Shown here piece after piece: positions 2,514 through 26,681 of a DNA stretch of 32,012 nt. Each line of letters starts with the position of its first letter. Within the stretch, counting starts at the first letter, position 1. Both the position numbers and the translations under genes were made by a program. The notes beneath the pieces are model-generated. The model made no database searches. It worked only from the letters and a program-made list of their open reading frames with translations, and had not been told where the DNA came from. The DNA comes from an uncultured Nitrospina sp. (GTDB lineage: Bacteria; Nitrospinota; Nitrospinia; Nitrospinales; VA-1). The DNA is taken from positions 1-32,012 of the forward strand of contig CAZMBO010000005.1 in the NCBI GenBank assembly GCA_964564655.1, read 5' to 3'.

Positions 2514-3001
2514 TGTTTTATTTTTTGTTGCAGTCCATCGTTATGGATATGACATATGGCAGCGGCCAGGGCATCAGAAGCATCGAACGGATTGGGTTTT
2601 TCTTTGAGTCGTAATAGGGTGGTCACCATGTCTTGGACCTGATTTTTATCCGCGCGCCCATAGCCAACCACGCACTGTTTGATTTCTAGAGGGCTATATT
2701 CTGCAATCTGCAGTCCGCTATTCGCAGCGGCAAGAATTGCAACGCCTCGAGTTTGCCCCAATTTTATGACTGTTTTCACATTAGTGGCATAGAAAAGGTC
2801 TTCTACAACAACCACATCGGGGGCGAATTTCTCCATGGCAATAACCAACTCATCATAAATGTGTTTGAGCCGTTTTGGAAATGCGTCTTTAGGAGAACTG
2901 TGCACACTATTCCAATGTACTGCATGTAAATTACCCTTCACTTCTTCCACGATGCCGAAACCGGTGCAGATGCTTCCTGGATCAATTCCCATTACACGCA
3001 T
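2510..3001 (-). CDS. ruvC: Holliday junction resolvase RuvC
   Basis: GIDPG, VVEDLF, LGQTRG, EYSP..IK..VVGYGRADK.QV and DASDALA, with the catalytic acidic residues present. Confidence 0.98.
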   Translation of the reverse strand: MRVMGIDPGSICTGFGIVEEVKGNLHAVHWNSVHSSPKDAFPKRLKHIYDELVIAMEKFAPDVVVVEDLFYATNVKTVIKLGQTRGVAILAAANSGLQIAEYSPLEIKQCVVGYGRADKNQVQDMVTTLLRLKEKPNPFDASDALAAAICHIHNDGLQQKIKQ

Positions 3002-3052
3002 TTTTTGTAGCCTTGAGGTTGGCCGGTCTGCAAATGCAAATCGGATAGGGTT

Positions 3053-3808
3053 TCAGTTACCTTCGAGGATAGCGTTCATGACATCATCCGAGATGTCGAA
3101 GTTCGAGTAAGCTTTTTGAATGTCATCGTGATCGTCGAGAATATCCATTAGTTTGAGAAGAGCTTTGCCCTTATTTTCATCAACCGCAACCGTATTTGAG
3201 GGAATGCGTGTGATTTCTGCAATTTCAAGAGTGATACCTGCATCATCCAAGGCTTTTCTAACGCTTTCAAAGTTCTCCGCGACTGTTGTGATTTCATAAT
3301 GGTTGTCCACGGTTTTAATATCATCGGCACCTGCGTCGATAGCCAGCTCCATGAGTTCGTCTTCTTCTTTGGATTCGGTTTTAACTGTGATCAACCCTTT
3401 TTGCTCGAAGATCCAACTGACACATCCGTTTTCGCCGAGATTGCCTCCGGCTTTACCCAGAGCGGCACGGATTTCACTCACGGTACGGTTTTTATTATCG
3501 GTCATTGCTTCAAGGAATATTGCAGCTCCACCAGGACCATAACCTTCATAATTAACTTCTTCATAATGCACTCCCTCTAACTCACCGGTGCCTTTTTTTA
3601 TAGCCCGAGTGATGTTATCTCCCGGCATGTTCTGTCCTTTTGCAGCAAGGATCGCCGTGCGCAGACGAGGGTTACCATCAGGATCGCCGCCACCAATACG
3701 TGCGGCAACAGTAATTTCTTTAATAATTTTGGTGAAAATTTTTCCACGCTTAGCGTCCAACGCGCCTTTTTTATGTTTTATACTTGACCACTTGGAATGA
3801 CCTGACAT
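3053..3808 (-). CDS. yebC: YebC/PmpR family protein
   Basis: [34 protein letters not shown]. Classical position upstream of ruvC. Confidence 0.97.
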
Positions 3809-3837
3809 GTTCTGTAAGATCCTTATTTACGTTTAAG

Positions 3838-3866
3838 TTGCTAACCAACGCCTAATTTAACATACT
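3838..3866 (+). promoter_or_regulatory. Putative sigma70 promoter for the Fe-S/flavoprotein operon (leaderless geometry)
   Basis: TTGCTA (3838-3843), 17-nt spacer, CATACT (3861-3866), then 6 nt to the ATG at 3873. No SD precedes the ATG. Confidence 0.45.
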
Positions 3867-3872
3867 AAGACG

Positions 3873-4529
3873 ATGAAAAAAATTGAAATTAAAATTTCAG
3901 GAAAACCCATTTCAGCGCAAGCGGGTGAAACAATTGTTCATGCACTTTGGGCCGCGGGAATGGCAGAATCGGTTCAGACGGGTTGTGCGGGAGGTGTGTG
4001 TGGAGCGTGTACTGTTACCCTTCGCTATGCCGACGGAAGACCGGGAGGAACAGAACTCGCTTGCATGAAGCCCGTAGAAGAGGGTATGGAGATATTTCCA
4101 TGTCCGGTGGAACCAGATAAGGCTGTCGAACCAATTGCCAATGTAGACTCTTTAACTTTGCAATCGGTTTTCCCTACTGTCAACCGATGTACGAAATGCG
4201 GCAGTTGCACGACTGCTTGCCCGATGTCTATTCCTGTGATGGATTCGGTAATGCGTATGCAGGAGGGGAGTTTCGATAAGGTTGCAGAAGATTTTACCAC
4301 CTGTATTCATTGCGGACTTTGCCGGTTTGTATGTGAAGATAAAGTCAAACCACACAGTATGGGACTTTGGATTCGTCGATCTTTAGGAAAGAGCCAGATT
4401 GAGCTAAAAATAGACGTTGAAAATTCTGATTGTGTTGAAAAAGAGTGGCAGTATTTATTGGTTGAAGACAAACAGGAAAGAATGCAAAGAGCAAAAATTT
4501 TTCGTGAAAGTGGGGGGCTCCCAGAATGA
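3873..4529 (+). CDS. [2Fe-2S] + 2x[4Fe-4S] iron-sulfur protein (FrdB/SdhB-like partner of the downstream flavoprotein)
   Basis: 2Fe-2S motif CAGGVCGAC...LAC; two ferredoxin motifs CTKCGSCTTACP and CIHCGLCRFVC. ATGA overlap with the next gene. Confidence 0.88.
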   Translation: MKKIEIKISGKPISAQAGETIVHALWAAGMAESVQTGCAGGVCGACTVTLRYADGRPGGTELACMKPVEEGMEIFPCPVEPDKAVEPIANVDSLTLQSVFPTVNRCTKCGSCTTACPMSIPVMDSVMRMQEGSFDKVAEDFTTCIHCGLCRFVCEDKVKPHSMGLWIRRSLGKSQIELKIDVENSDCVEKEWQYLLVEDKQERMQRAKIFRESGGLPE

Positions 4530-6187
4530 TGGAGTGGGCAAAAGAATCTCTTGGAAAAGTGGAACGGTCTCGTCCAGCCCGTTTTCAAAAACCTGCTCCC
4601 TTTCCAAATGACAATGAATCAGAAAGCATTTTGAAAAATTTTCACCCCGATTACTCGGGGAAAGAACGAACGTTAGTAATTGGCCCAAATGCAGGTGATA
4701 AAAAATTTCCTTTGGAACTTGCAGATTTATTAGAAGCGGATAGTCCGTTGCCTGTTTCGTATTCAACAAAACCCGATATAGAAACCGATGTATTGATTTT
4801 GGGCGGCGGTGGCGCAGGTGCCTCAGCAGCACTGGCACTGGAAGGTTCGGGGCTAAAAACTCATTTGGCCACGAAATTGCGCCTGGGCGATTCTAATACC
4901 ATAATGGCAGAGGGAGGTATCCAGGCCGCATTGGCTGAAAACGATTCCCCTAGAAAACATTTTGCCGATGCTCTTATTGGAGGGCATGGGGAGAACGAAA
5001 CCGAACTTTTACGCATTCTCTGCGAAAGTGGACCTGAGAGCATTCAGTGGCTCAGTCAACATGGTTGTTTGTTTGACAGAAATTCAGATGGCACTTTTCT
5101 TTTAAGGAGAGGAGGTGGAACTTCCGTTCCACGTGTGTTGGCCTGCCGCGATTATACGGGATTGGAAATCATGCGTGTGTTGAAAGACGCAGTGAGATTG
5201 AGTTCTGTAAATACTCTGGAAGGCCATGCCGCTGTTGAACTTTTGGATGATGGAAACTCAACGGTGACCGGTGCCGTTTTGTATGATCGAAAGAAGGAAT
5301 CTTTTGTCAACGTTTCAGCACGGGCCGTGATTCTTGCTACAGGTGGTAGTGGACAGTTGCGTTTGCAGGGTTTCCCGACCAGCAATCATGTTGGAGCCAC
5401 CGGTGACGGATTAGTGCTTGCTTATCGACAGGGTTGCCGTCTACTATTTTTAGATAGCTATCAGTACCATCCCTCGGGAGCCTGTTATCCGGAGGCCTTG
5501 GCGGGGCAATTGGTGACAGAAGCGATTCGATCTATTGGGGCGCAAGTGGTGAATGCCGAAGGGGTTCATTTCATAAACGAGATGGCCTATCGCGATGTTT
5601 TAGCAGGGGCAATTATTAAAGAAACCCGTGAAGGCCGTGGAGTAACAACACCAAATGGGAAAAAAGGGATTTGGTTGGACACCCCTATGATTGACTTAAA
5701 GAATGGAGAAGGAACTTTGGCGAAACATTTTCCCGGCCTGATTCATCGTTTTGAGCGTTATCAAATTAATCCATCACAAACACCTATTTTGATTTACCCA
5801 ACCCTACATTACCAGAATGGCGGGATTTCTGTGGATGCTAATGGTAAAACAGAAGTAAACGGATTATGGGCTTGCGGGGAGGTGACAGGTGGGTTGCACG
5901 GAAGAAATCGTCTTATGGGGAATTCGCTAATGGATATTCTGGTATTTGGTCGCAGAGCAGGAGAATCGGTAAAGGATGATCTGCCAGAAAGAGGTCCCTT
6001 AACAATGACTAGCTTGAACCAGTTTAGAAAAACTCAATCGAATAAGCAGTGCTCTCCTATCTTTTTTCCTGCTGCATCTAAAATGACACTGGAGTTTGGT
6101 AAGGCCGAAATAGAACCTGAAAAATTAGACTCATCCACTTCTAATGAACCTAGCGAATTTGAACCTCCGGATCCTTTCGCACGATAA
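4526..6187 (+). CDS. FAD-dependent fumarate reductase/succinate dehydrogenase/NadB-family flavoprotein, non-covalent FAD type
   Basis: GGGGAG dinucleotide motif, SNTIMAEGG, LATGG, QYHPSG, LVTEAIR, YRD, LHYQNGG, HGRNRLMGNSL. Has an ~85-aa N-terminal extension and lacks the C-terminal ESRG domain. Confidence 0.85.
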   Translation: MMEWAKESLGKVERSRPARFQKPAPFPNDNESESILKNFHPDYSGKERTLVIGPNAGDKKFPLELADLLEADSPLPVSYSTKPDIETDVLILGGGGAGASAALALEGSGLKTHLATKLRLGDSNTIMAEGGIQAALAENDSPRKHFADALIGGHGENETELLRILCESGPESIQWLSQHGCLFDRNSDGTFLLRRGGGTSVPRVLACRDYTGLEIMRVLKDAVRLSSVNTLEGHAAVELLDDGNSTVTGAVLYDRKKESFVNVSARAVILATGGSGQLRLQGFPTSNHVGATGDGLVLAYRQGCRLLFLDSYQYHPSGACYPEALAGQLVTEAIRSIGAQVVNAEGVHFINEMAYRDVLAGAIIKETREGRGVTTPNGKKGIWLDTPMIDLKNGEGTLAKHFPGLIHRFERYQINPSQTPILIYPTLHYQNGGISVDANGKTEVNGLWACGEVTGGLHGRNRLMGNSLMDILVFGRRAGESVKDDLPERGPLTMTSLNQFRKTQSNKQCSPIFFPAASKMTLEFGKAEIEPEKLDSSTSNEPSEFEPPDPFAR

Positions 6188-6201
6188 AAGAATTATTCAA
6201 T

Positions 6202-6798
6202 ATGGTCGAAAGTTATATTGCTGCATACGGGATAAAAATTTTTGCATCACTCATAGTTTTTATAGCATTGATCATGATGTTCATCCGACAAGGTAATGAT
6301 CGGGTAAATGCTGACCCGCAAGCAATAAAGAATATCTTGAATCAATTGGATTCGGATTATAAGGTGGTAGCAAATGTAATGGTGCCAGGGGACCGAGGTG
6401 TGTTCGATTTAGGAAATGTTGTGGTTTCTCCTTACGGAGTTTTTGTGATTACCGTTAAACAGACCGTTGGTAAAATATTTGGCGGAAAAGGAGATCGGGA
6501 ATGGGAAGTGAAGTCTGGAGGGAGTCGGGATTTTATTGCTAATCCACTTTGGGAAAATCGCAAACACGTGAACGCATTGGAAAAACTAATTGGACCTGCT
6601 CCATTTATTTCAATAGTCGTTTTTCCAAGGGGTAATTTGAAAGGCGAGTTTGGTAGAAACGTAATTCGATTAGGCGAACTTGAAAATTTCATTACTCAAA
6701 ATAAAACATTCCACATGTCGATGGACAAAAGGGATGAAATATTAAAAGCTTTACAAAAAAGCCAGTCCAAGGTTAGGGCCCGATCGGATTACCGATAA
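6202..6798 (+). CDS. Membrane-anchored NERD (nuclease-related domain) protein, catalytic residues degenerate
   Basis: N-terminal TM helix (IFASLIVFIALIMMFI). NERD-like segments VVVSPYGVFVITVK..G.IFG..W and NPLWENRKH..AL. Confidence 0.8.
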   Translation: MVESYIAAYGIKIFASLIVFIALIMMFIRQGNDRVNADPQAIKNILNQLDSDYKVVANVMVPGDRGVFDLGNVVVSPYGVFVITVKQTVGKIFGGKGDREWEVKSGGSRDFIANPLWENRKHVNALEKLIGPAPFISIVVFPRGNLKGEFGRNVIRLGELENFITQNKTFHMSMDKRDEILKALQKSQSKVRARSDYR

Positions 6799-6912
6799 AG
6801 TAATTGGGTAAAGGTGATATTTTCAAGGTTTTCTTCCATTCCATTGAATAAATGCATTACAATATCTCTCTTTCAGATAGCTGAAATTTTTTTAGGGGGG
6901 AGAAGTAAAAAG

Positions 6913-7464
6913 ATGAAACATTTTGTTTTGATTTGTGCTTTGCTGGTGGTTTTTTTGTTAGATGGCATAGCTATGGCAGTGCCTAAAAAATTTTTATTCC
7001 CAGGGCCTGAATACAAACCTCCCTGTGATACTTCTAAAACAACGATTTGTACCATAGAAATCTGGCTTGCAAACAAACATAAAAAGCAAAAAAGAGAGAT
7101 AAAGAAATTTTTGAAATCTAAATCTCTTAAGGTTTTAGGGCACACGGTCCAATATTGGCGTCCAAAAGGTGGGCATCCGCCTACAAATATTGCAATAGGC
7201 AGTGCAGTCAGCGCAGAAGATGCGCGCTTTGTTATTGATTTTGCTCTCAAATATAATGATCAGATTGATCTTCTGGTGCTTCGACCGCTCAATCCGCCGA
7301 ATTATGTTGCTATTGCCACATCAGCTTGGGATGAACTGTCACAGATTCCCATTACTCAGGACGATTTAACACGGTTGCGAGATCCTAAATTGACAACGGA
7401 AGAGTTCCATTCTCTCTATTATGAACTCACAAACGAGGCAAATGTTCAAAACAAGTTTTACTAG
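6913..7464 (+). CDS. Hypothetical exported protein
   Basis: ATG 6913 is preferred over GTG 6814: it follows a purine-rich tract and yields a Sec signal peptide MKHFVLICALLVVFLLDGIAMA. The mature part has a C-x7-C pair; no family recognised. Confidence 0.7.
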   Translation: MKHFVLICALLVVFLLDGIAMAVPKKFLFPGPEYKPPCDTSKTTICTIEIWLANKHKKQKREIKKFLKSKSLKVLGHTVQYWRPKGGHPPTNIAIGSAVSAEDARFVIDFALKYNDQIDLLVLRPLNPPNYVAIATSAWDELSQIPITQDDLTRLRDPKLTTEEFHSLYYELTNEANVQNKFY

Positions 7465-7583
7465 GAGGATCGCAATTTTCTTTATTCATTTCATTTCCAC
7501 AACCGATCTTTAATGTTTGAAAGTTAAAGAGTGGGACAGTTGTTTTAATAAATTTCTGATTCCTTCTCTTTACGCTCGGAAGT

Positions 7584-7612
7584 TTGACAAATGAAGCGGG
7601 ATTTGATAGAAG
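7584..7612 (+). promoter_or_regulatory. Putative sigma70 promoter of yajC-secD-secF
   Basis: Perfect TTGACA (7584-7589), 17-nt spacer, TAGAAG (7607-7612) preceded by an extended -10 TG (7604-7605). Confidence 0.5.
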
Positions 7613-7706
7613 CTAAACCTTTGAATTAAAAAAGGGGAAGCTTTTTATGGTTTTCCGTTTTCAAGAAAAGTAAGAAGGATAAACATGCTAAATAGAGGTA
7701 ATCATT

Positions 7707-8021
7707 ATGCTTGAACTAGCTTTTGCAATGGCTCCTCCTCCTGAAGGAGCCGATCCCGGGGGTGGCAGTTTGTTGGCTTTGTTACCGCCGATGATTATGA
7801 TGTTTTTGATCTTCTATTTTATTTTGATTCGTCCCCAACAAAAAAAACAGCAGGAGGCCAGAAAAATGTTGGATGATTTGAATGAGGGCGATAATGTGGT
7901 CACACTGAGCGGTATTCATGGAACTATTAAGAAATTAAAAGATGATACGGTGATGTTGCAGATTGCTGATAATGTTCGGATAAAGATCAATCGATCCTCT
8001 ATAGGTAATAAAAAACAATAG
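7707..8021 (+). CDS. yajC: Preprotein translocase subunit YajC
   Basis: IFYFILIRPQQKK, L.EGDNVVT.SGIHG. SD GAGGT at 7695-7699. Upstream of secD. Confidence 0.97.
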   Translation: MLELAFAMAPPPEGADPGGGSLLALLPPMIMMFLIFYFILIRPQQKKQQEARKMLDDLNEGDNVVTLSGIHGTIKKLKDDTVMLQIADNVRIKINRSSIGNKKQ

Positions 8022-8033
8022 AAGAAAGAATAA

Positions 8034-9587
8034 ATGTACAAAAATCTTAAATGGCGAATTCTTTCAATCCTCATTGTTATTTTTGGGGCAGTTGCTTTGG
8101 CTTATCCGCTCAAGGAAAAAATTTCTTTGGGATTGGATTTGCAGGGAGGGATGCATCTGGTTCTCGAAGTTAAAGTTGAAAAGGCTGTCGAGGCCAGCTT
8201 GGAGCGTTTTGCCGATGATATCAAGCGTGATATTGGTGAAGAGGATTTAGAACTTGATCGCATCAAAGCCATTTTTAAGAATCTACAGATCAATATCCGT
8301 ATGGTAGATGCGTTGGATCTTCCACCTGTTAAAAAGATAATGGAAGGTTATGTCTTTTTTAAAATGGTCAGCGAAGATTCGGATGGCTTAGGCTTGGTTT
8401 ATGAATTGGGTCAAGATCAAGTAAAACAGATCCAACAAAATGCAGTGAGTCAGGGACTAGAAACGATTCGCAATAGGGTAGACCAGTTTGGCGTATCGGA
8501 ACCAACCATTCAGGTTCAAGGAGAACGACGTATTCTAGTACAGTTACCTGGAGTGAAAGACCCTGAACGTGCCATCAATCTTATCGGGAAAACTGCACGA
8601 CTAGAATTTAAGTTGGTAGATGAAGAAAACAGCTTGCAAGAGGCCTTGTCTGGAAGCGCTCCAGAAGGGTCAGAGATTTTATACAAGCGACAAGAGGATA
8701 AGGAAACGGGAGAAGTTACTAAAGAACCTTATCTCTTGAAGCAGCGAACTGTTTTGACAGGAGAAACTTTGACAGGTGCACAAGTCAGGTTTGATGGAGA
8801 TTTCAACGAACCCTATGTTGCGTTAAATTTTAACAGTGTCGGTGCAATGATTTTTCATGAGGTTACTAGAGAAAACATTAGAAAACGTTTGGCCATTGTT
8901 CTTGATGACAATGTTTATTCAGCACCTGTAATACAGGATGCAATTCCAGGAGGTCGGGCCCAGATAACTGGACAGTTTACCTCGGAAGATGCACGTGACT
9001 TGGCAATCGTATTGCGTGCAGGTGCGTTGCCTGCCCCCGTTGTAATTTTGGAAAACAGGACCGTCGGTCCCTCTCTGGGGCAGGACTCTATTAACAAGGG
9101 AATTAACTCGATCATTTTTGGCGGTGCTTTGGTCGTTATTTTTATTCTTTTTTATTACAAACTCTCAGGCGCTATAGCAGTCACAGCATTGTCTTTAAAT
9201 ATTGTTATTCTTACGGGAGCACTGGCTTATTTTGGTGCGGCATTAACCTTGCCGGGAATTGCCGGAATTATCCTTACGGTGGGTATGGCGATCGATGCCA
9301 ACGTTTTAGTTTTTGAGAGAATTCGTGAGGAAATAAAACTCGGAAAAACGGTGAGAGCTGCAATTGAAGCAGGTTTTTCTAAAGCGTTTCGTACTATTGT
9401 GGATGCAAATATCACTACCTTTATTGCTGCGGTGGTATTGTTTCAGTTTGGAACAGGGCCAATTAAAGGATTCGCAATTACTCTTTGTATTGGTATAGCA
9501 GCGAGTATGTTTACGGCTGTATTTGTAAGTCGTACTTTTTTTGATTGCACAATGAGTCAGAAAAAACTTGATCAATTGAGTATCTAA
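8034..9587 (+). CDS. secD: Protein translocase subunit SecD
   Basis: LGLDLQGG, IRNRVDQFGVSEP, LRAGALPAP, VGPSLG, LTLPGIAG, GMAIDANVLVFERIREE, GPIKGFA. Confidence 0.99.
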   Translation: MYKNLKWRILSILIVIFGAVALAYPLKEKISLGLDLQGGMHLVLEVKVEKAVEASLERFADDIKRDIGEEDLELDRIKAIFKNLQINIRMVDALDLPPVKKIMEGYVFFKMVSEDSDGLGLVYELGQDQVKQIQQNAVSQGLETIRNRVDQFGVSEPTIQVQGERRILVQLPGVKDPERAINLIGKTARLEFKLVDEENSLQEALSGSAPEGSEILYKRQEDKETGEVTKEPYLLKQRTVLTGETLTGAQVRFDGDFNEPYVALNFNSVGAMIFHEVTRENIRKRLAIVLDDNVYSAPVIQDAIPGGRAQITGQFTSEDARDLAIVLRAGALPAPVVILENRTVGPSLGQDSINKGINSIIFGGALVVIFILFYYKLSGAIAVTALSLNIVILTGALAYFGAALTLPGIAGIILTVGMAIDANVLVFERIREEIKLGKTVRAAIEAGFSKAFRTIVDANITTFIAAVVLFQFGTGPIKGFAITLCIGIAASMFTAVFVSRTFFDCTMSQKKLDQLSI

Positions 9588-23140: not shown

Positions 23141-24850
23141 GTGATCGAACATGATGTCGTGATCGTAGGTGCTGGTCTTGCAGGAATGCGCTGCGCTCTT
23201 GAGGTTTGTAAAGAGCTTGATGTCGCCGTGTTGACCAAGGTTTATCCCTCCCGTTCGCATTCTGGTGCAGCTCAAGGCGGAATTGCGGCTTCTCTTGGAA
23301 ATTCTGAGCCGGATAGCTGGGAAGAGCACATGTTTGATACCGTCAAAGGCGGTGATTTTCTAAACGATCAGGATGCGGTCGAGGAATATGTCAAGGCGGC
23401 ACCCAGAATTATCTATGAGCTAGAGCACATGGGTTGCGTTTTCAGTCGCACCCCAGAAGGAAAGATAGCGCAACGTAGCTTTGGTGGTCATTCAAAGCCC
23501 CGTGCCTGCTTCTCCGCTGACCGAACTGGTCACGCGATTTTACATGCTCTTCATGAGCAGCTGATGAAAAACTCCAAGTCCGTTAAAATTTATAATGAGT
23601 GGTATATGCATTCTCTGGTGGTCGATGGTGACCGGTGCAACGGTGTGATTGTAAGTAATATTCAAACCGGTGAAGTCGAAGTTATCCGGGCCAAAGCTGT
23701 GGTCTTTTGTACCGGAGGTTATGGCCGCGTATTTAAAATCACATCCAATGCTTTTGCCAGTACCGCGGATGGCGTGATGGCAGCTTTTGAGGTTGGCATT
23801 CCTTTGGAGGATCCGGAATTTGTGCAGTTTCATCCTTCTGGGTTATACCGACAGGGAATTTTGTTTTCTGAGGCGGCTCGTGGCGAAGGTGCTTACCTGC
23901 TCAATGATAAAGGCGAGCGGTTCATGGAAACTTATGCTCCCTCCAGAATGGAATTGGCACCGCGCGATATTGTGGCTCGTGCAGAGCAAAGTGAAATGGA
24001 TGCGGGACGCGGCGTCAACGGTGAAGATTGTATTCATCTCGATCTTCGACATCTGGGCGAAGCGCGAATCATGGAACGCCTACCGCAAATTCGACAATTG
24101 GCAATCGACTTTCTCGGTATTGATTGCGTTACCGATCCTCTACCCATTCAACCCACTGCACATTATTCCATGGGGGGTATTCCTGTGGATAATAATTGTC
24201 ACGTTATCCTCGACTCAGAAGGAACAAAGATGCATGGTTTTTTTGCGGCAGGTGAATGCGCATGTGTTTCTGTTCATGGTGGCAACCGATTGGGAACCAA
24301 TTCTCTCCTTGATGCCGTGGTGTTTGGCGAACGTGCAGGTAAATCTGTCCTCGAATATGCCAGAGGTAGGGACTTTGGCAATGTTAATGAAGGACAGGAA
24401 AAAGCTAGGGTCTTAGAGAAATTTGAAGATATATTCCAAAGAGACGGTAGCGAAAGTTACAACCAGATTCGCGACGAAATGAAAGAAATTATGATGTCCC
24501 ATTGCGGTGTTTTCCGCGATGAGCAAAGACTGAAAGCCTGCATCGAAACTCTCAAAGGGCTTCAGGAACGGTTCAAAAAAGGTAAAGTAACGGATAAAGG
24601 GAAACTGTTCAATACAGAAATTTATGAAATTATGGAGTTAGGAAATATGTTGGGTATGGCAGTAATTATAGCCACAGCCGCATTGGAACGACAAGAAAGT
24701 CGTGGTGGGCATTTTCGTACTGACTTCCCAAAGCGAGATGATAAAAAATTCTTGCATCACTCCATGGTCTATGATTCTCCAGATGGATTGGTCATAAAAA
24801 CTAAGCCGGTGGTGATTACTAGATATCAACCTGCTGAAAGAACTTATTAA
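23141..24850 (+). CDS. sdhA: Succinate dehydrogenase/fumarate reductase flavoprotein subunit (covalent FAD)
   Basis: [16 protein letters not shown] (covalent-FAD His), [48 protein letters not shown], terminal RTY. GTG start with SD GAGG. Confidence 0.96.
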
Positions 24851-25791
24851 TGGCGACATTTAGGATCAAACGGTTCAATCCGGAAAAACAGCCCGAGCCT
24901 TACTTCGAAGAGTTTCAACTGGATATTCCCGATGGTGCCACGCTTCTGGATTGCATGAACCAGATCAAGTGGACTCTCGATGGCAGCCTTTCTTATAGGA
25001 TGTCGTGCCGAAGTGCCATCTGTGGCTCGTGTGCAGTCAAGTCAAACGGTCATGCCTTACTGGCTTGTCAACGACAGGCGGAACACCTTGTGGATGACAA
25101 CGATACTATTACTTTGGAACCTCTCGGCAATATGAAACCAGTGAAAGATCTGGTGGTCGACTTCACACCGTTCTGGGACAAAGTGAATAAAATTAAACCT
25201 TATCTGGAGCCAAAAGAAGAGCCACCGGTAAAAGAAAGACGTCAGTCGCAGGAAGAGTTTTTAGTCATTGATGACGCTAGCACTTGCATCATGTGCGGTG
25301 CCTGCTATTCCGACTGCAACACTCTGGAAGTGGATGATAATTTCCTCGGGCCTGCAGCTCTGGCAAAAGCGCAACGGTTTGTCGGCGATTCCCGCGACTC
25401 TAAAACCCTGCAACGCGTACAGGACTTAAGCGAGCCAGGAGGGATTTGGGATTGCACCCATTGTGCCGAATGTGTGGAACGCTGTCCGAAACCGGCACGT
25501 CCTTTCGATCGCATCAAAGAAATCATGACCGTGGCATTGGAGGAAGGTGTGCATAACAATAATGGCGCGCGTCACGCACTGTCCTTCACTAATTCGGTTA
25601 AGAGGAGTGGCAATCTAAATGAAAACAGAATTCCCGTTGAGTCGATGGGAATTTTTAATATCCCCGGACTGCTCAGCTTGATTCCGGTTGGGCTCAGAAT
25701 GTTGCTCAAAGGAAAAGTTCCACCGATCCTTCATCATTCCATTGAAGAGGTTCGTGACGTAAAACGTATATTCAAGGAGTTGGATCAATGA
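24850..25791 (+). CDS. sdhB: Succinate dehydrogenase iron-sulfur subunit (type-E-like)
   Basis: [10 protein letters not shown]...[33 protein letters not shown] (extra Cys), amphipathic C-terminal extension. Confidence 0.95.
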
Positions 25792-26681
25792 AGTTTGCCC
25801 TTTTTACCGGATGTGTCGCCAAAGGGGCGACTCGAGAGTTGATGCTCTCCACAACCAAAGCAGCAGAAGGCCTAGGCTTTGATTTTGTAGAAATGAAAAG
25901 CGCGTCCTGTTGTGGTGCGGGAGTGGTTTCCGAAAAGAGCCCACTATTGGCAGATGCCTTGAACGCGCGTTCGTTCTCCATCGCTGAAAAACAGGGATTG
26001 GATATTGTCACTATTTGTTCAACCTGTCAGGGGACCTTAAAAAAAACCGAAGCACATTTGAACGAAAGTAAAGAGTATAAAGAAAAAGTCAACGACATCC
26101 TAGAAGAGGGGGGGCATCAGTACAACGGAAAAACAAGAATCAAACATTTTGCTAACATCCTCGCAACCGAAGAGGGAATGGCAAGATTGAAGTCTCGCAT
26201 CAAGCGTCCTTTGACTGGATTAAAGGTTGCAGCCTTTTACGGTTGTTATGTTCTGCGTCCGTCAGAAAGGTCTGACTTTGATAGTCCAGACAATCCAACG
26301 GGGATGGAAGATATCTTTGAAGCGCTGGGCGCAACCCCGATTTATTATCCTAGTCGTACCAAATGTTGCGGATTTCCGATCGTGATGATGAACAAGGATG
26401 CATCTTTAGGTATGTCAGGTAATGCATTGCAAGATGCGATCGAACACGGCGCCGATGTCGTTGCCACTGGATGTCCGCTTTGTCATCTGAGTCTCGATTC
26501 TTATCAACCGGAAATCGAATTATTGCAAAAGAAAAACCAATCCATTCCCATCCTGCACTTACCACAACTGGTGGCTCTGGCATTGGGCTACACACCCACA
26601 CAACTGGGAATGGACACCCACATCGTCTCCACCCTCAAAATAAACCAGATCCTTTCCAGTTCGCATTCGGCTGCTCACTGA
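25788..26681 (+). CDS. CCG-domain subunit (type-E complex II anchor 'SdhE' / HdrB family)
   Basis: Two CCG domains: FTGC...SCCGA...CSTC and FYGC...KCCGF...CPLC. ATGA overlap with sdhB. Confidence 0.9.

Follow-up and report, generated by a model that had tools for sequence, protein, structure and literature searches.

Nitrospina-type bacteria carry out most oceanic nitrite oxidation and fix CO2 by the reductive tricarboxylic acid (rTCA) cycle, yet a fumarate reductase is frequently missing from the gene inventories published for them. Which enzyme, then, reduces fumarate to succinate? We examined this question at a locus from an uncultured Nitrospina sp., in a stretch of 32,012 nucleotides (positions 1-32012 of contig C5, hereafter the window) of a source genome of 1.71 Mb that is 86.5% complete. 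The nearest relatives of the window proteins carry the names Nitrospina, Nitrospinaceae or Nitrospinota. Two open reading frames on the forward strand encode an iron-sulfur (FeS) subunit of 218 aa with a 2Fe-2S cluster plus two 4-Cys clusters (3873-4529) and an SdhA/FrdA-like flavoprotein subunit of 553 aa (4526-6187). Judged from the sequences and their neighborhoods, the pair is probably a heterodimeric, anchor-less fumarate reductase that would catalyze the fumarate-to-succinate step of the rTCA cycle in Nitrospinales. The strongest evidence for this role is the gene context of the pair in relatives.

Gene context of the pair in relatives

A scan of species-representative genomes yielded 80 loci, 31 of them from Nitrospinota (62-85% identity) and 49 from other lineages (48-54% identity; L035-L083). 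The latter were mostly from Nitrospirota, with one from Bipolaricaulota, and many were short. An FeS homologue was located directly upstream of the flavoprotein in 77 of the 80 loci, and the remaining 3 had no upstream DNA. The Nitrospirota gene order was aclB-aclA-aconitase-(monomeric IDH)-FeS-flavoprotein-sucC-sucD (IDH, isocitrate dehydrogenase), with Pfam identities for L055 and one L036 gene only and gene-cluster tallies for the rest. Aconitase-type genes were present in 33, AclB/SucC-type genes in 36, AclA/SucD-type genes in 38 and IDH genes in 21 of the 49 loci. The Nitrospirota flavoprotein was about 51% identical to that of the window (50-54% over residues 12-519) and the FeS protein 30-36% identical, and these orthologues have the N-terminal domain, the Asn in place of the flavinylated His and all 12 Cys residues that are described below.

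Table S4 of PMC13147460 shows the same order for six Nitrospira species; there the Nitrospira version is named "putative soluble fumarate reductase" (SFR_1 or SFR_A/SFR_B), and most Nitrospira entries list the flavoprotein only. According to the available part of PMC6606698, NITMOv2_0694 (714 nt, "ferredoxin") and NITMOv2_0695 (1584 nt, "sdhA or nadB") of Nitrospira moscoviensis lie between idh and sucC, and their transcription relative to the median was log2 +1.97 and +2.56, respectively, like that of the rTCA neighbors; the value for sdhC of complex II was log2 -1.07. These two genes are probably the Nitrospirota pair. The Nitrospirota and window proteins represent the same kind of FeS-flavoprotein pair and fall in neighboring clades of the tree, but the Nitrospirota pair is embedded in an ACL-aconitase-IDH-sucCD operon, whereas the window pair lies outside one, and a disordered tail ending in EPPDPF is found only on the Nitrospinota proteins. 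An anchor-less frdA-frdB, possibly of the present family, was reported in an rTCA operon of Leptospirillum in 2008, with the flavoprotein gene first (PMC2607301).

Among 1.84 billion representatives, proteins with the N-terminal domain scored 330-495 bits and NadB- or SdhA-like proteins about 200-245 bits, and proteins of about 400 aa without the extension scored between the two groups. Flavoproteins of this size (e.g., P0133, P0139, P0140 and P0151), which have neither the N-terminal extension nor the C-terminal domain, branch inside the family. A metagenome scan seeded with distant members gave another 80 loci (L094-L173), many of them short. Relatives of this kind (e.g., L158, L119 and L141) showed 44-49% identity to P0125 and turned up often on contigs from anaerobic and gut metagenomes. 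The pair was, in 28 of the 80 metagenome loci, directly preceded by at least two genes of a heterodisulfide reductase (Hdr) block, which comprises an HdrA-like protein (657 aa), MvhD, two Fer4 proteins (one of them Fer4_22) and a PyrK-like NAD-binding 2Fe-2S protein. Loci with the Hdr block often have a fumarase or an Asp-Al_Ex transporter downstream. Over the whole set, 13 of the 80 loci contained aconitase, IDH or sucCD, and the six of these that were included in the IQ-TREE tree described below fell with Nitrospirota; fumarase A/B was found in 8 loci and a transporter of the Asp-Al_Ex family (succinate-exporter type) in 13. The Hdr block and TCA genes occurred together in none of the 80 metagenome loci.

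The Bipolaricaulota locus (L062:14-13892) begins with an HdrA-like gene, MvhD, the small and large subunits of an NiFe hydrogenase and a 157-aa open reading frame, and continues with a two-CCG HdrB/SdhE-like protein, the FeS subunit, the flavoprotein, a 2-oxoacid:ferredoxin oxidoreductase (OFOR), fumarase A/B and malic enzyme. Its CCG protein (291 aa) is encoded directly upstream of the FeS subunit and shares 30% identity with the SdhE of the window along its entire length (E 3e-42). This string of genes looks like a hydrogen-driven, Hdr-coupled fumarate reductase. In the IQ-TREE tree, the Hdr-linked clade (16 rows, support 100) was sister to the Nitrospirota clade (93), and Nitrospinota branched next. 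The sequence contexts of the relatives fit fumarate as the substrate, and those in anaerobes would also be compatible with electron input of the Hdr type, possibly by bifurcation. Genome papers have already pointed to links between Hdr genes and frdA (PMC4914600; PMC13147460, for Ca. Endoriftia). Two kinds of apparent gene fusion were considered and discarded: the 217 extra N-terminal residues of P0123 (727 aa) had no Pfam match at 1e-6, and the long open frames seen upstream at some loci run across the FeS gene in a different frame.

The flavoprotein and its iron-sulfur partner

The flavoprotein matched PF00890 over residues 88-468 (E 5.6e-74). Because the match in the SdhA of the window spans residues 5-389, the flavoprotein has an N-terminal extension of about 85 aa (residues 1-86; 4526-4783, forward strand), which carries the motifs HPDY and GPNAG and has a predicted fold. 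PF02910 (Succ_DH_flav_C) gave no match in the flavoprotein at E<=0.01, whereas the window SdhA has one. Residues were mapped by alignment with E. coli FrdA, SdhA and NadB (annotated K-12 record; FrdA numbered with Met1 as 1). The FrdA residue that binds FAD covalently, H45, corresponds to N124 of the flavoprotein, and the window SdhA has His40 at this site. FrdA H233 corresponds to H315, T245/E246 to T331/E332, R288 to R356, H356 to H428 and R391 to R462. Asn occupied the covalent-His position in every one of 120 close homologues and in all 24 rows of a family alignment reaching down to 37% identity, in which the fumarate-binding and catalytic residues were invariant. The hinge of the capping domain reads RSIG, compared with the canonical RGEG. 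A preliminary description of the locus, made from the DNA letters, had reported that the dicarboxylate active site was kept, that the covalent-FAD His and the C-terminal domain were missing and that an N-terminal extension was present, and all of these features were borne out, including every catalytic residue of FrdA/SdhA.

In the AlphaFold2 model of the flavoprotein (pLDDT 86.5), the N-terminal 86 residues were also predicted with confidence, and the tail (residues 526-553) was disordered (pLDDT < 50). The top Foldseek match of the model was E. coli FrdA (1kf6_A; E 8e-34, TM 0.70). By VIA, 419 residues were aligned with 1kf6_A (Z 37.9, rmsd 2.6) and 388 with soluble flavocytochrome c3 fumarate reductases (Z 38.7, rmsd 2.4), and structural matches also spanned urocanate reductase and ketosteroid dehydrogenases of the same fold family. 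All of the structural matches began at model residues 66-88, and residues 1-65 were thus barely covered. The N-terminal domain was predicted to consist of two helices and two short strands. Residues H40, P41, G53, N55, G57 and E64 were invariant or nearly so in the family alignment, and the motif HP[DEN][YHF] occurred in 120 of 120 close homologues. A search of the ESM Atlas with the N-terminal 86 residues gave a best score of 0.84, which is inside the stated noise range of the tool. At the other end, the motif EPPDPF (residues 546-551; 6161-6178, forward strand) closes the low-confidence tail. A terminal motif of the form [ED]P[PR][DN]PF was shared by 118 of 120 close homologues; by locus, it was present in 21 of the 31 from Nitrospinota and in none of the 49 others. 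The tail may be a docking peptide or tether for a partner.

The flavoprotein reached none of the curated NCBIfam cut-offs. The best match was TfrA (NF004900), with 323.8 bits against a cut-off of 718, and the scores against TIGR01812 (sdhA_frdA) and TIGR00551 (nadB) were 273.2 bits (cut-off 567.3) and 296 bits (cut-off 452.75), respectively. If the proposed function is true, annotation pipelines need a model for this family, because its members are below all curated cut-offs and are named only "FAD-binding protein."

The partner protein has 12 Cys residues, which were invariant in 18 of 18 homologues. Four of them (C38, C43, C46 and C64) form the 2Fe-2S site and eight form the 4Fe-4S sites (C106/109/112/116 and C144/147/150/154); because both of the latter are CxxCxxCxxxC motifs, the third cluster has four Cys ligands. 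These counts agree with the 2Fe-2S/2x4Fe-4S partner of the preliminary description, although the Pfam match is to Fer2_4 and a 4Fe-4S dicluster domain rather than to the SdhB-type Fer2_3. The protein scored 16.5 bits with Fer2_3 (cut-off 27) and 22.8 bits with TIGR00384 (cut-off 88). Nevertheless, hhalign aligned it with SdhB/FrdB over 146 columns covering all three sites (98% probability, E 2.9e-13), which makes it a compact, remote homologue of SdhB/FrdB. A fold search with the monomer model (pLDDT 82.8) returned weak, domain-level matches (TM <= 0.37; FrdB at rank 16 with TM 0.28); it was uninformative, and we therefore relied on hhalign. The CCG domain PF02754 gave no match in the FeS protein, which scored 22.7 bits against a cut-off of 385 with the TfrB model NF004898.

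Complex prediction of the pair gave an ipSAE of 0.89, whereas the best of 3 controls scored 0.01. Of 157 solved complexes, 116 pass the mark applied, as do 2 of 215 mismatched pairs; these counts are only roughly valid here, since our own alignments were used. The runs agreed in at least 89% of contacts, and the partner pLDDT was at least 88. The result may reflect likeness rather than binding, because SdhA/SdhB-type complexes have already been solved. The predicted interface places the 2Fe-2S loop against the flavoprotein region round Asn124 and the FeS C-terminal helices 165-215 (conserved R169, G172 and W192) against the flavoprotein helix 142-152. It includes the flavoprotein segment 514-520 (conserved SPxxFP), and the N-terminal extension lies outside it. 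From this model we infer that the two subunits would form a heterodimer.

Altogether, the pair resembles complex II (FrdAB(CD) and SdhAB(CD) of E. coli and the type E SdhABE) in the fold and catalytic residues of the flavoprotein, in the three-cluster FeS subunit and in a predicted interface that runs through the 2Fe-2S loop. In contrast to complex II, it has no covalent-FAD His, no PF02910 and no anchor gene and carries the extra N-terminal domain, and its FeS subunit is compact (218 aa), has four Cys at the third cluster and is below the SdhB cut-offs.

Reaction, electron donor and rival explanations

In the proposed mechanism, the outermost 4Fe-4S cluster in the small subunit would accept the electrons, which would travel via the second 4Fe-4S cluster and then the 2Fe-2S cluster to the non-covalently bound FAD. 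The FAD would then reduce fumarate held by H315, T331/E332, R356 (as the proton donor), H428 and R462. Catalysis would run in the fumarate-reducing direction; work on E. coli FrdA His44 mutants reportedly indicates that non-covalent FAD should disable succinate oxidation. The rTCA assignment is supported because the Nitrospirota pair sits in the ACL operon and is co-expressed with rTCA genes, because relatives adjoin fumarase, OFOR and malic enzyme genes, and because the source genome has rTCA genes of its own. A cytoplasmic fumarate reductase for this cycle had been proposed in the preliminary description, and these contexts strengthen that proposal. The source genome was found to encode two OFORs, one of which adjoins sucCD, as well as sucCD itself, a monomeric IDH and an ACL-like gene; sucC-sucD were located about 2 kb from an OFOR alpha subunit (G000:C19:6112-10640). 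Table S4 of PMC13147460 lists only OFOR-SCS_A-SCS_B for Nitrospina watsonii. The OFOR-sucCD co-location in the source genome matches this printed OFOR-SCS arrangement. The ACL-type gene (C1:24844-25335) had a weak Citrate_bind match (61 bits), as did those across the order, and other Nitrospinota classes had a canonical match of 170-190 bits.

Several points weigh against this assignment. Measured activity was not found for any family member in the literature searched, and the family is below all curated NCBIfam cut-offs. The N. moscoviensis genes were matched to the pair by gene order and lengths rather than by sequence. The pairs of the window and of the other Nitrospinota adjoin no TCA gene; their synteny is conserved, with yebC-ruvC on one flank and NERD-yajC-secDF on the other. 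The type E SdhABE of the source genome could in principle reduce fumarate. The five Hdr-module proteins of the relatives (HdrA-like, MvhD, Fer4_22 and PyrK-like among them) were not found by tblastn at E<=1e-4 in the source genome, an absence that is not proven because the genome is 86.5% complete. Finally, the pair was present in none of 18 genomes from the other five Nitrospinota families, of which 15 have a Citrate_bind (ACL-type) match, and it is therefore not required wherever ACL occurs.

The flavoprotein could also be a second L-aspartate oxidase, that is, a NadB paralogue, or a related amino acid oxidase. Like NadB, it has no covalent His and would bind FAD non-covalently, it shares the catalytic Arg/His set, its sequence scores are similar, and NadB (1chu) was near the top of its matches in the PDB (E 3.5e-59). 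However, its TIGR00551 score of 296 bits falls short of the cut-off of 452.75, and the source genome has a true nadB elsewhere (G000:C8:17337-18878; 559.5 bits), so that the flavoprotein is not the sole NadB; the superfamily has three paralogues in this genome, namely, NadB, the type E SdhA and the flavoprotein of the pair. Glu121 of E. coli NadB, which presumably binds the amino group of the substrate, corresponds to Gly196 in the flavoprotein, to Gly or Ser in its relatives and to Phe in Sdh/Frd, and the genome's own NadB keeps the Glu. The phylogeny suggested in the preliminary description was run in part, as two trees. In a FastTree tree of 138 rows (rows shorter than 395 aa were left out), a NadB clade of 68 rows with support 100 contained both the E. 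coli NadB and the genome's own and excluded the flavoprotein, which instead fell in a group of 42 rows next to TfrA-like and mycobacterial-Sdh1-like proteins. A quick IQ-TREE tree of 65 rows, a hand-picked subset, likewise separated the family (45 rows, SH-aLRT 100) from NadB (8 rows, 100) and made them sisters with support 97, which favors a NadB relationship. The deep position of the family is unstable, since the two trees disagree on where it stands with respect to NadB and the TfrA-like proteins; both trees nevertheless keep it apart from NadB. Together with the obligately linked FeS partner, these results make a NadB identity extremely improbable, and we rejected it. Two of the grounds on which the preliminary description would have been refuted, a place inside NadB and being the genome's only NadB, thereby fell away. 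An oxidative role, as a soluble succinate dehydrogenase, is also very improbable. Membership in the reversible SdhA/FrdA superfamily would allow it, but the flavinylation His is missing in all 120 close homologues, the Nitrospirota pair sits in an ACL operon, and the source genome already has a His-bearing type E succinate dehydrogenase. In the available part of PMC6606698, the pair is expressed in autotrophic growth while oxidative TCA genes are low.

Another explanation keeps the reaction and changes the donor: the pair might be an alternative catalytic head on a membrane subunit encoded elsewhere, with the SdhE gene 20 kb downstream as a candidate, and thus a quinol:fumarate reductase. The two-CCG protein encoded directly upstream of the FeS subunit in Bipolaricaulota, with its 30% identity to the window SdhE, speaks for such an arrangement, as does a two-CCG protein of about 300 aa in all four genomes of nitrite-oxidizing bacteria that were checked; where inspected (the window and G001), however, the CCG gene belongs to the genome's own sdhABE operon. 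The C-terminal region of SdhB faces the membrane anchor, whereas that of the FeS subunit is predicted to be packed on the flavoprotein. Shared anchors have been suggested for extra AB copies in the available part of PMC13147460, but the N. moscoviensis complex II was transcribed below the median and the pair well above it (PMC6606698, available part). We consider a membrane-bound head unlikely. It is less likely still that the pair acts on a different substrate, either another enoate or dicarboxylate or one coupled to thiols, as in archaeal TfrAB. In favor of this, TfrA is the best NCBIfam match of the flavoprotein and TfrA-like proteins form neighboring clades, the hinge is RSIG rather than RGEG, and the fold family includes urocanate reductase and ketosteroid dehydrogenases. 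TfrAB of methanogens is likewise cytoplasmic and has no anchor. The score of 323.8 bits is nonetheless far below the TfrA cut-off of 718, the FeS subunit has no CCG domain, and a separate CCG gene precedes the pair only at the Bipolaricaulota locus. Moreover, the fumarate-binding and catalytic residues are invariant in 24 members, and the neighbors include fumarase, sucCD and the Asp-Al_Ex transporter.

For the anchor-less rTCA fumarate reductase, the donor is tentatively a soluble low-potential carrier, such as a ferredoxin that would also feed the 2-oxoglutarate and pyruvate:ferredoxin oxidoreductases (OGOR and POR). A donor partner docked via the N-terminal domain or the EPPDPF tail is possible. 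If the pair is a working enzyme, the reductant cost of carbon fixation needs recalculation, since electrons would then come from a soluble carrier instead of quinol. The available text of PMC13147460 describes a fumarate reductase that is soluble, NADH-dependent and made of five subunits, FrdABCDE, in Hydrogenobacter thermophilus. By this description, the Hydrogenobacter enzyme is similar to the enzyme proposed for the window in being cytoplasmic, in belonging to an rTCA autotroph and in its FrdA/FrdB-like core; no genes for extra subunits adjoin the window pair. MvhD was missing from both of the complete Nitrospinales chromosomes examined, as it was from a Nitrospirales chromosome (G001). In a second Nitrospirales genome, G002, a gene cluster of the order HdrC-HdrB-HdrA-MvhD (fused, 473 aa)-Fer4_22-PyrK-like-Fer4 lies some 17 kb away from its FeS-flavoprotein pair (L177, G002:C1:404000-416000).

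A broader and rather doubtful proposal is that the window pair is the stripped core of a widespread family of cytoplasmic fumarate reductases with the HPDY domain. In anaerobes, among them organisms of gut metagenomes, such enzymes might be wired to HdrA-MvhD and an NAD(P)H-binding (PyrK-like) module and be electron bifurcating by a flavin, with fumarate as the high-potential acceptor and reduced ferredoxin as a product, and in Bipolaricaulota an Mvh-type hydrogenase and an HdrB-like CCG protein would take part. The aerobic nitrite oxidizers would have kept only the AB core, and Nitrospinota would have gained the EPPDPF tether. This would imply a new electron feed into the rTCA cycle, for example, by docking to ferredoxin/OGOR or to a reverse-electron-transport complex. 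Should the window pair be the working enzyme, the large related family in anaerobes would come into consideration for a new reaction of the electron-bifurcating kind.

An anchor-less rTCA fumarate reductase is a genomic hypothesis in print, described from genomes and transcriptomes only in the available parts of PMC13147460 and PMC6606698. To the literature found, the present analysis adds a Nitrospinota member, a set of family hallmarks (the N-terminal domain, an Asn in place of the flavinylated His, the compact FeS subunit and the Nitrospinota tail motif) and the link to Hdr-coupled relatives. Discussion of the Nitrospinota pair was not found in the literature searched, and the full gene tables of PMC13147460 may list a homologue. 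In its available part, the genome paper on Nitrospina gracilis gives the fumarate step to two complex II types, B and E, and its Table S1 holds no third flavoprotein under the terms searched (PMC3578206).

Distribution, transcripts and surroundings of the pair

Of 120 species genomes from Nitrospinota, 84 had an orthologue at E<=1e-120; among the 57 of high quality, the number was 47. The pair-bearing genomes all belonged to the four families of the window's order, with frequencies of 54/69, 5/5, 6/6 and 18/21. The pair is therefore a trait of the whole order that does not accompany ACL everywhere. Phylum-wide co-occurrence with ACL, which was considered as a pointer to the pair, does not single it out.

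Sampled words of the window were held to at least one half by 14 DNA runs, and six RNA-library runs held small shares. RNA contigs from 4 runs of 3 studies covered parts of both genes at 93-100% identity, and one 793-nt contig (4408-5200) spans the junction of the FeS and flavoprotein genes. This evidence is weak because the contigs show neither strand, level nor a single transcript and DNA carry-over is possible.

The two genes of the pair are coupled by an ATGA overlap at 4526-4529 on the forward strand, in which the FeS stop codon TGA occupies 4527-4529 and the flavoprotein start codon ATG occupies 4526-4528. Upstream, yebC, ruvC, ruvA and ruvB lie on the opposite strand, and Pfam searches of the neighboring genes found no cytochrome b or CCG anchor gene adjoining the pair. 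The window encodes a separate type E complex II at 23141-26681 on the forward strand, consisting of sdhA (23141-24850; with His at the covalent-FAD site), sdhB (24850-25791) and sdhE (25788-26681; two CCG domains), all identified by Pfam and NCBIfam. The coupling of the genes, the lack of an anchor beside them and their distinctness from this complex II, as claimed in the preliminary description, were therefore upheld. A promoter and terminator scan of 3000-8100 gave fewer sites than shuffled sequences and nothing usable.

On the 3' side, the pair is followed by a NERD-domain gene (6202-6798, forward strand; PF08378, E 4.6e-17) with an N-terminal hydrophobic helix, then by a secreted or membrane open reading frame of no known family and by yajC-secD-secF. 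The NERD gene starts 14 nt past the flavoprotein stop codon, and a single RNA-library contig (6074-6231) bridges this gap. A NERD homologue was found 3' of the pair in 25 of the 31 Nitrospinota loci.

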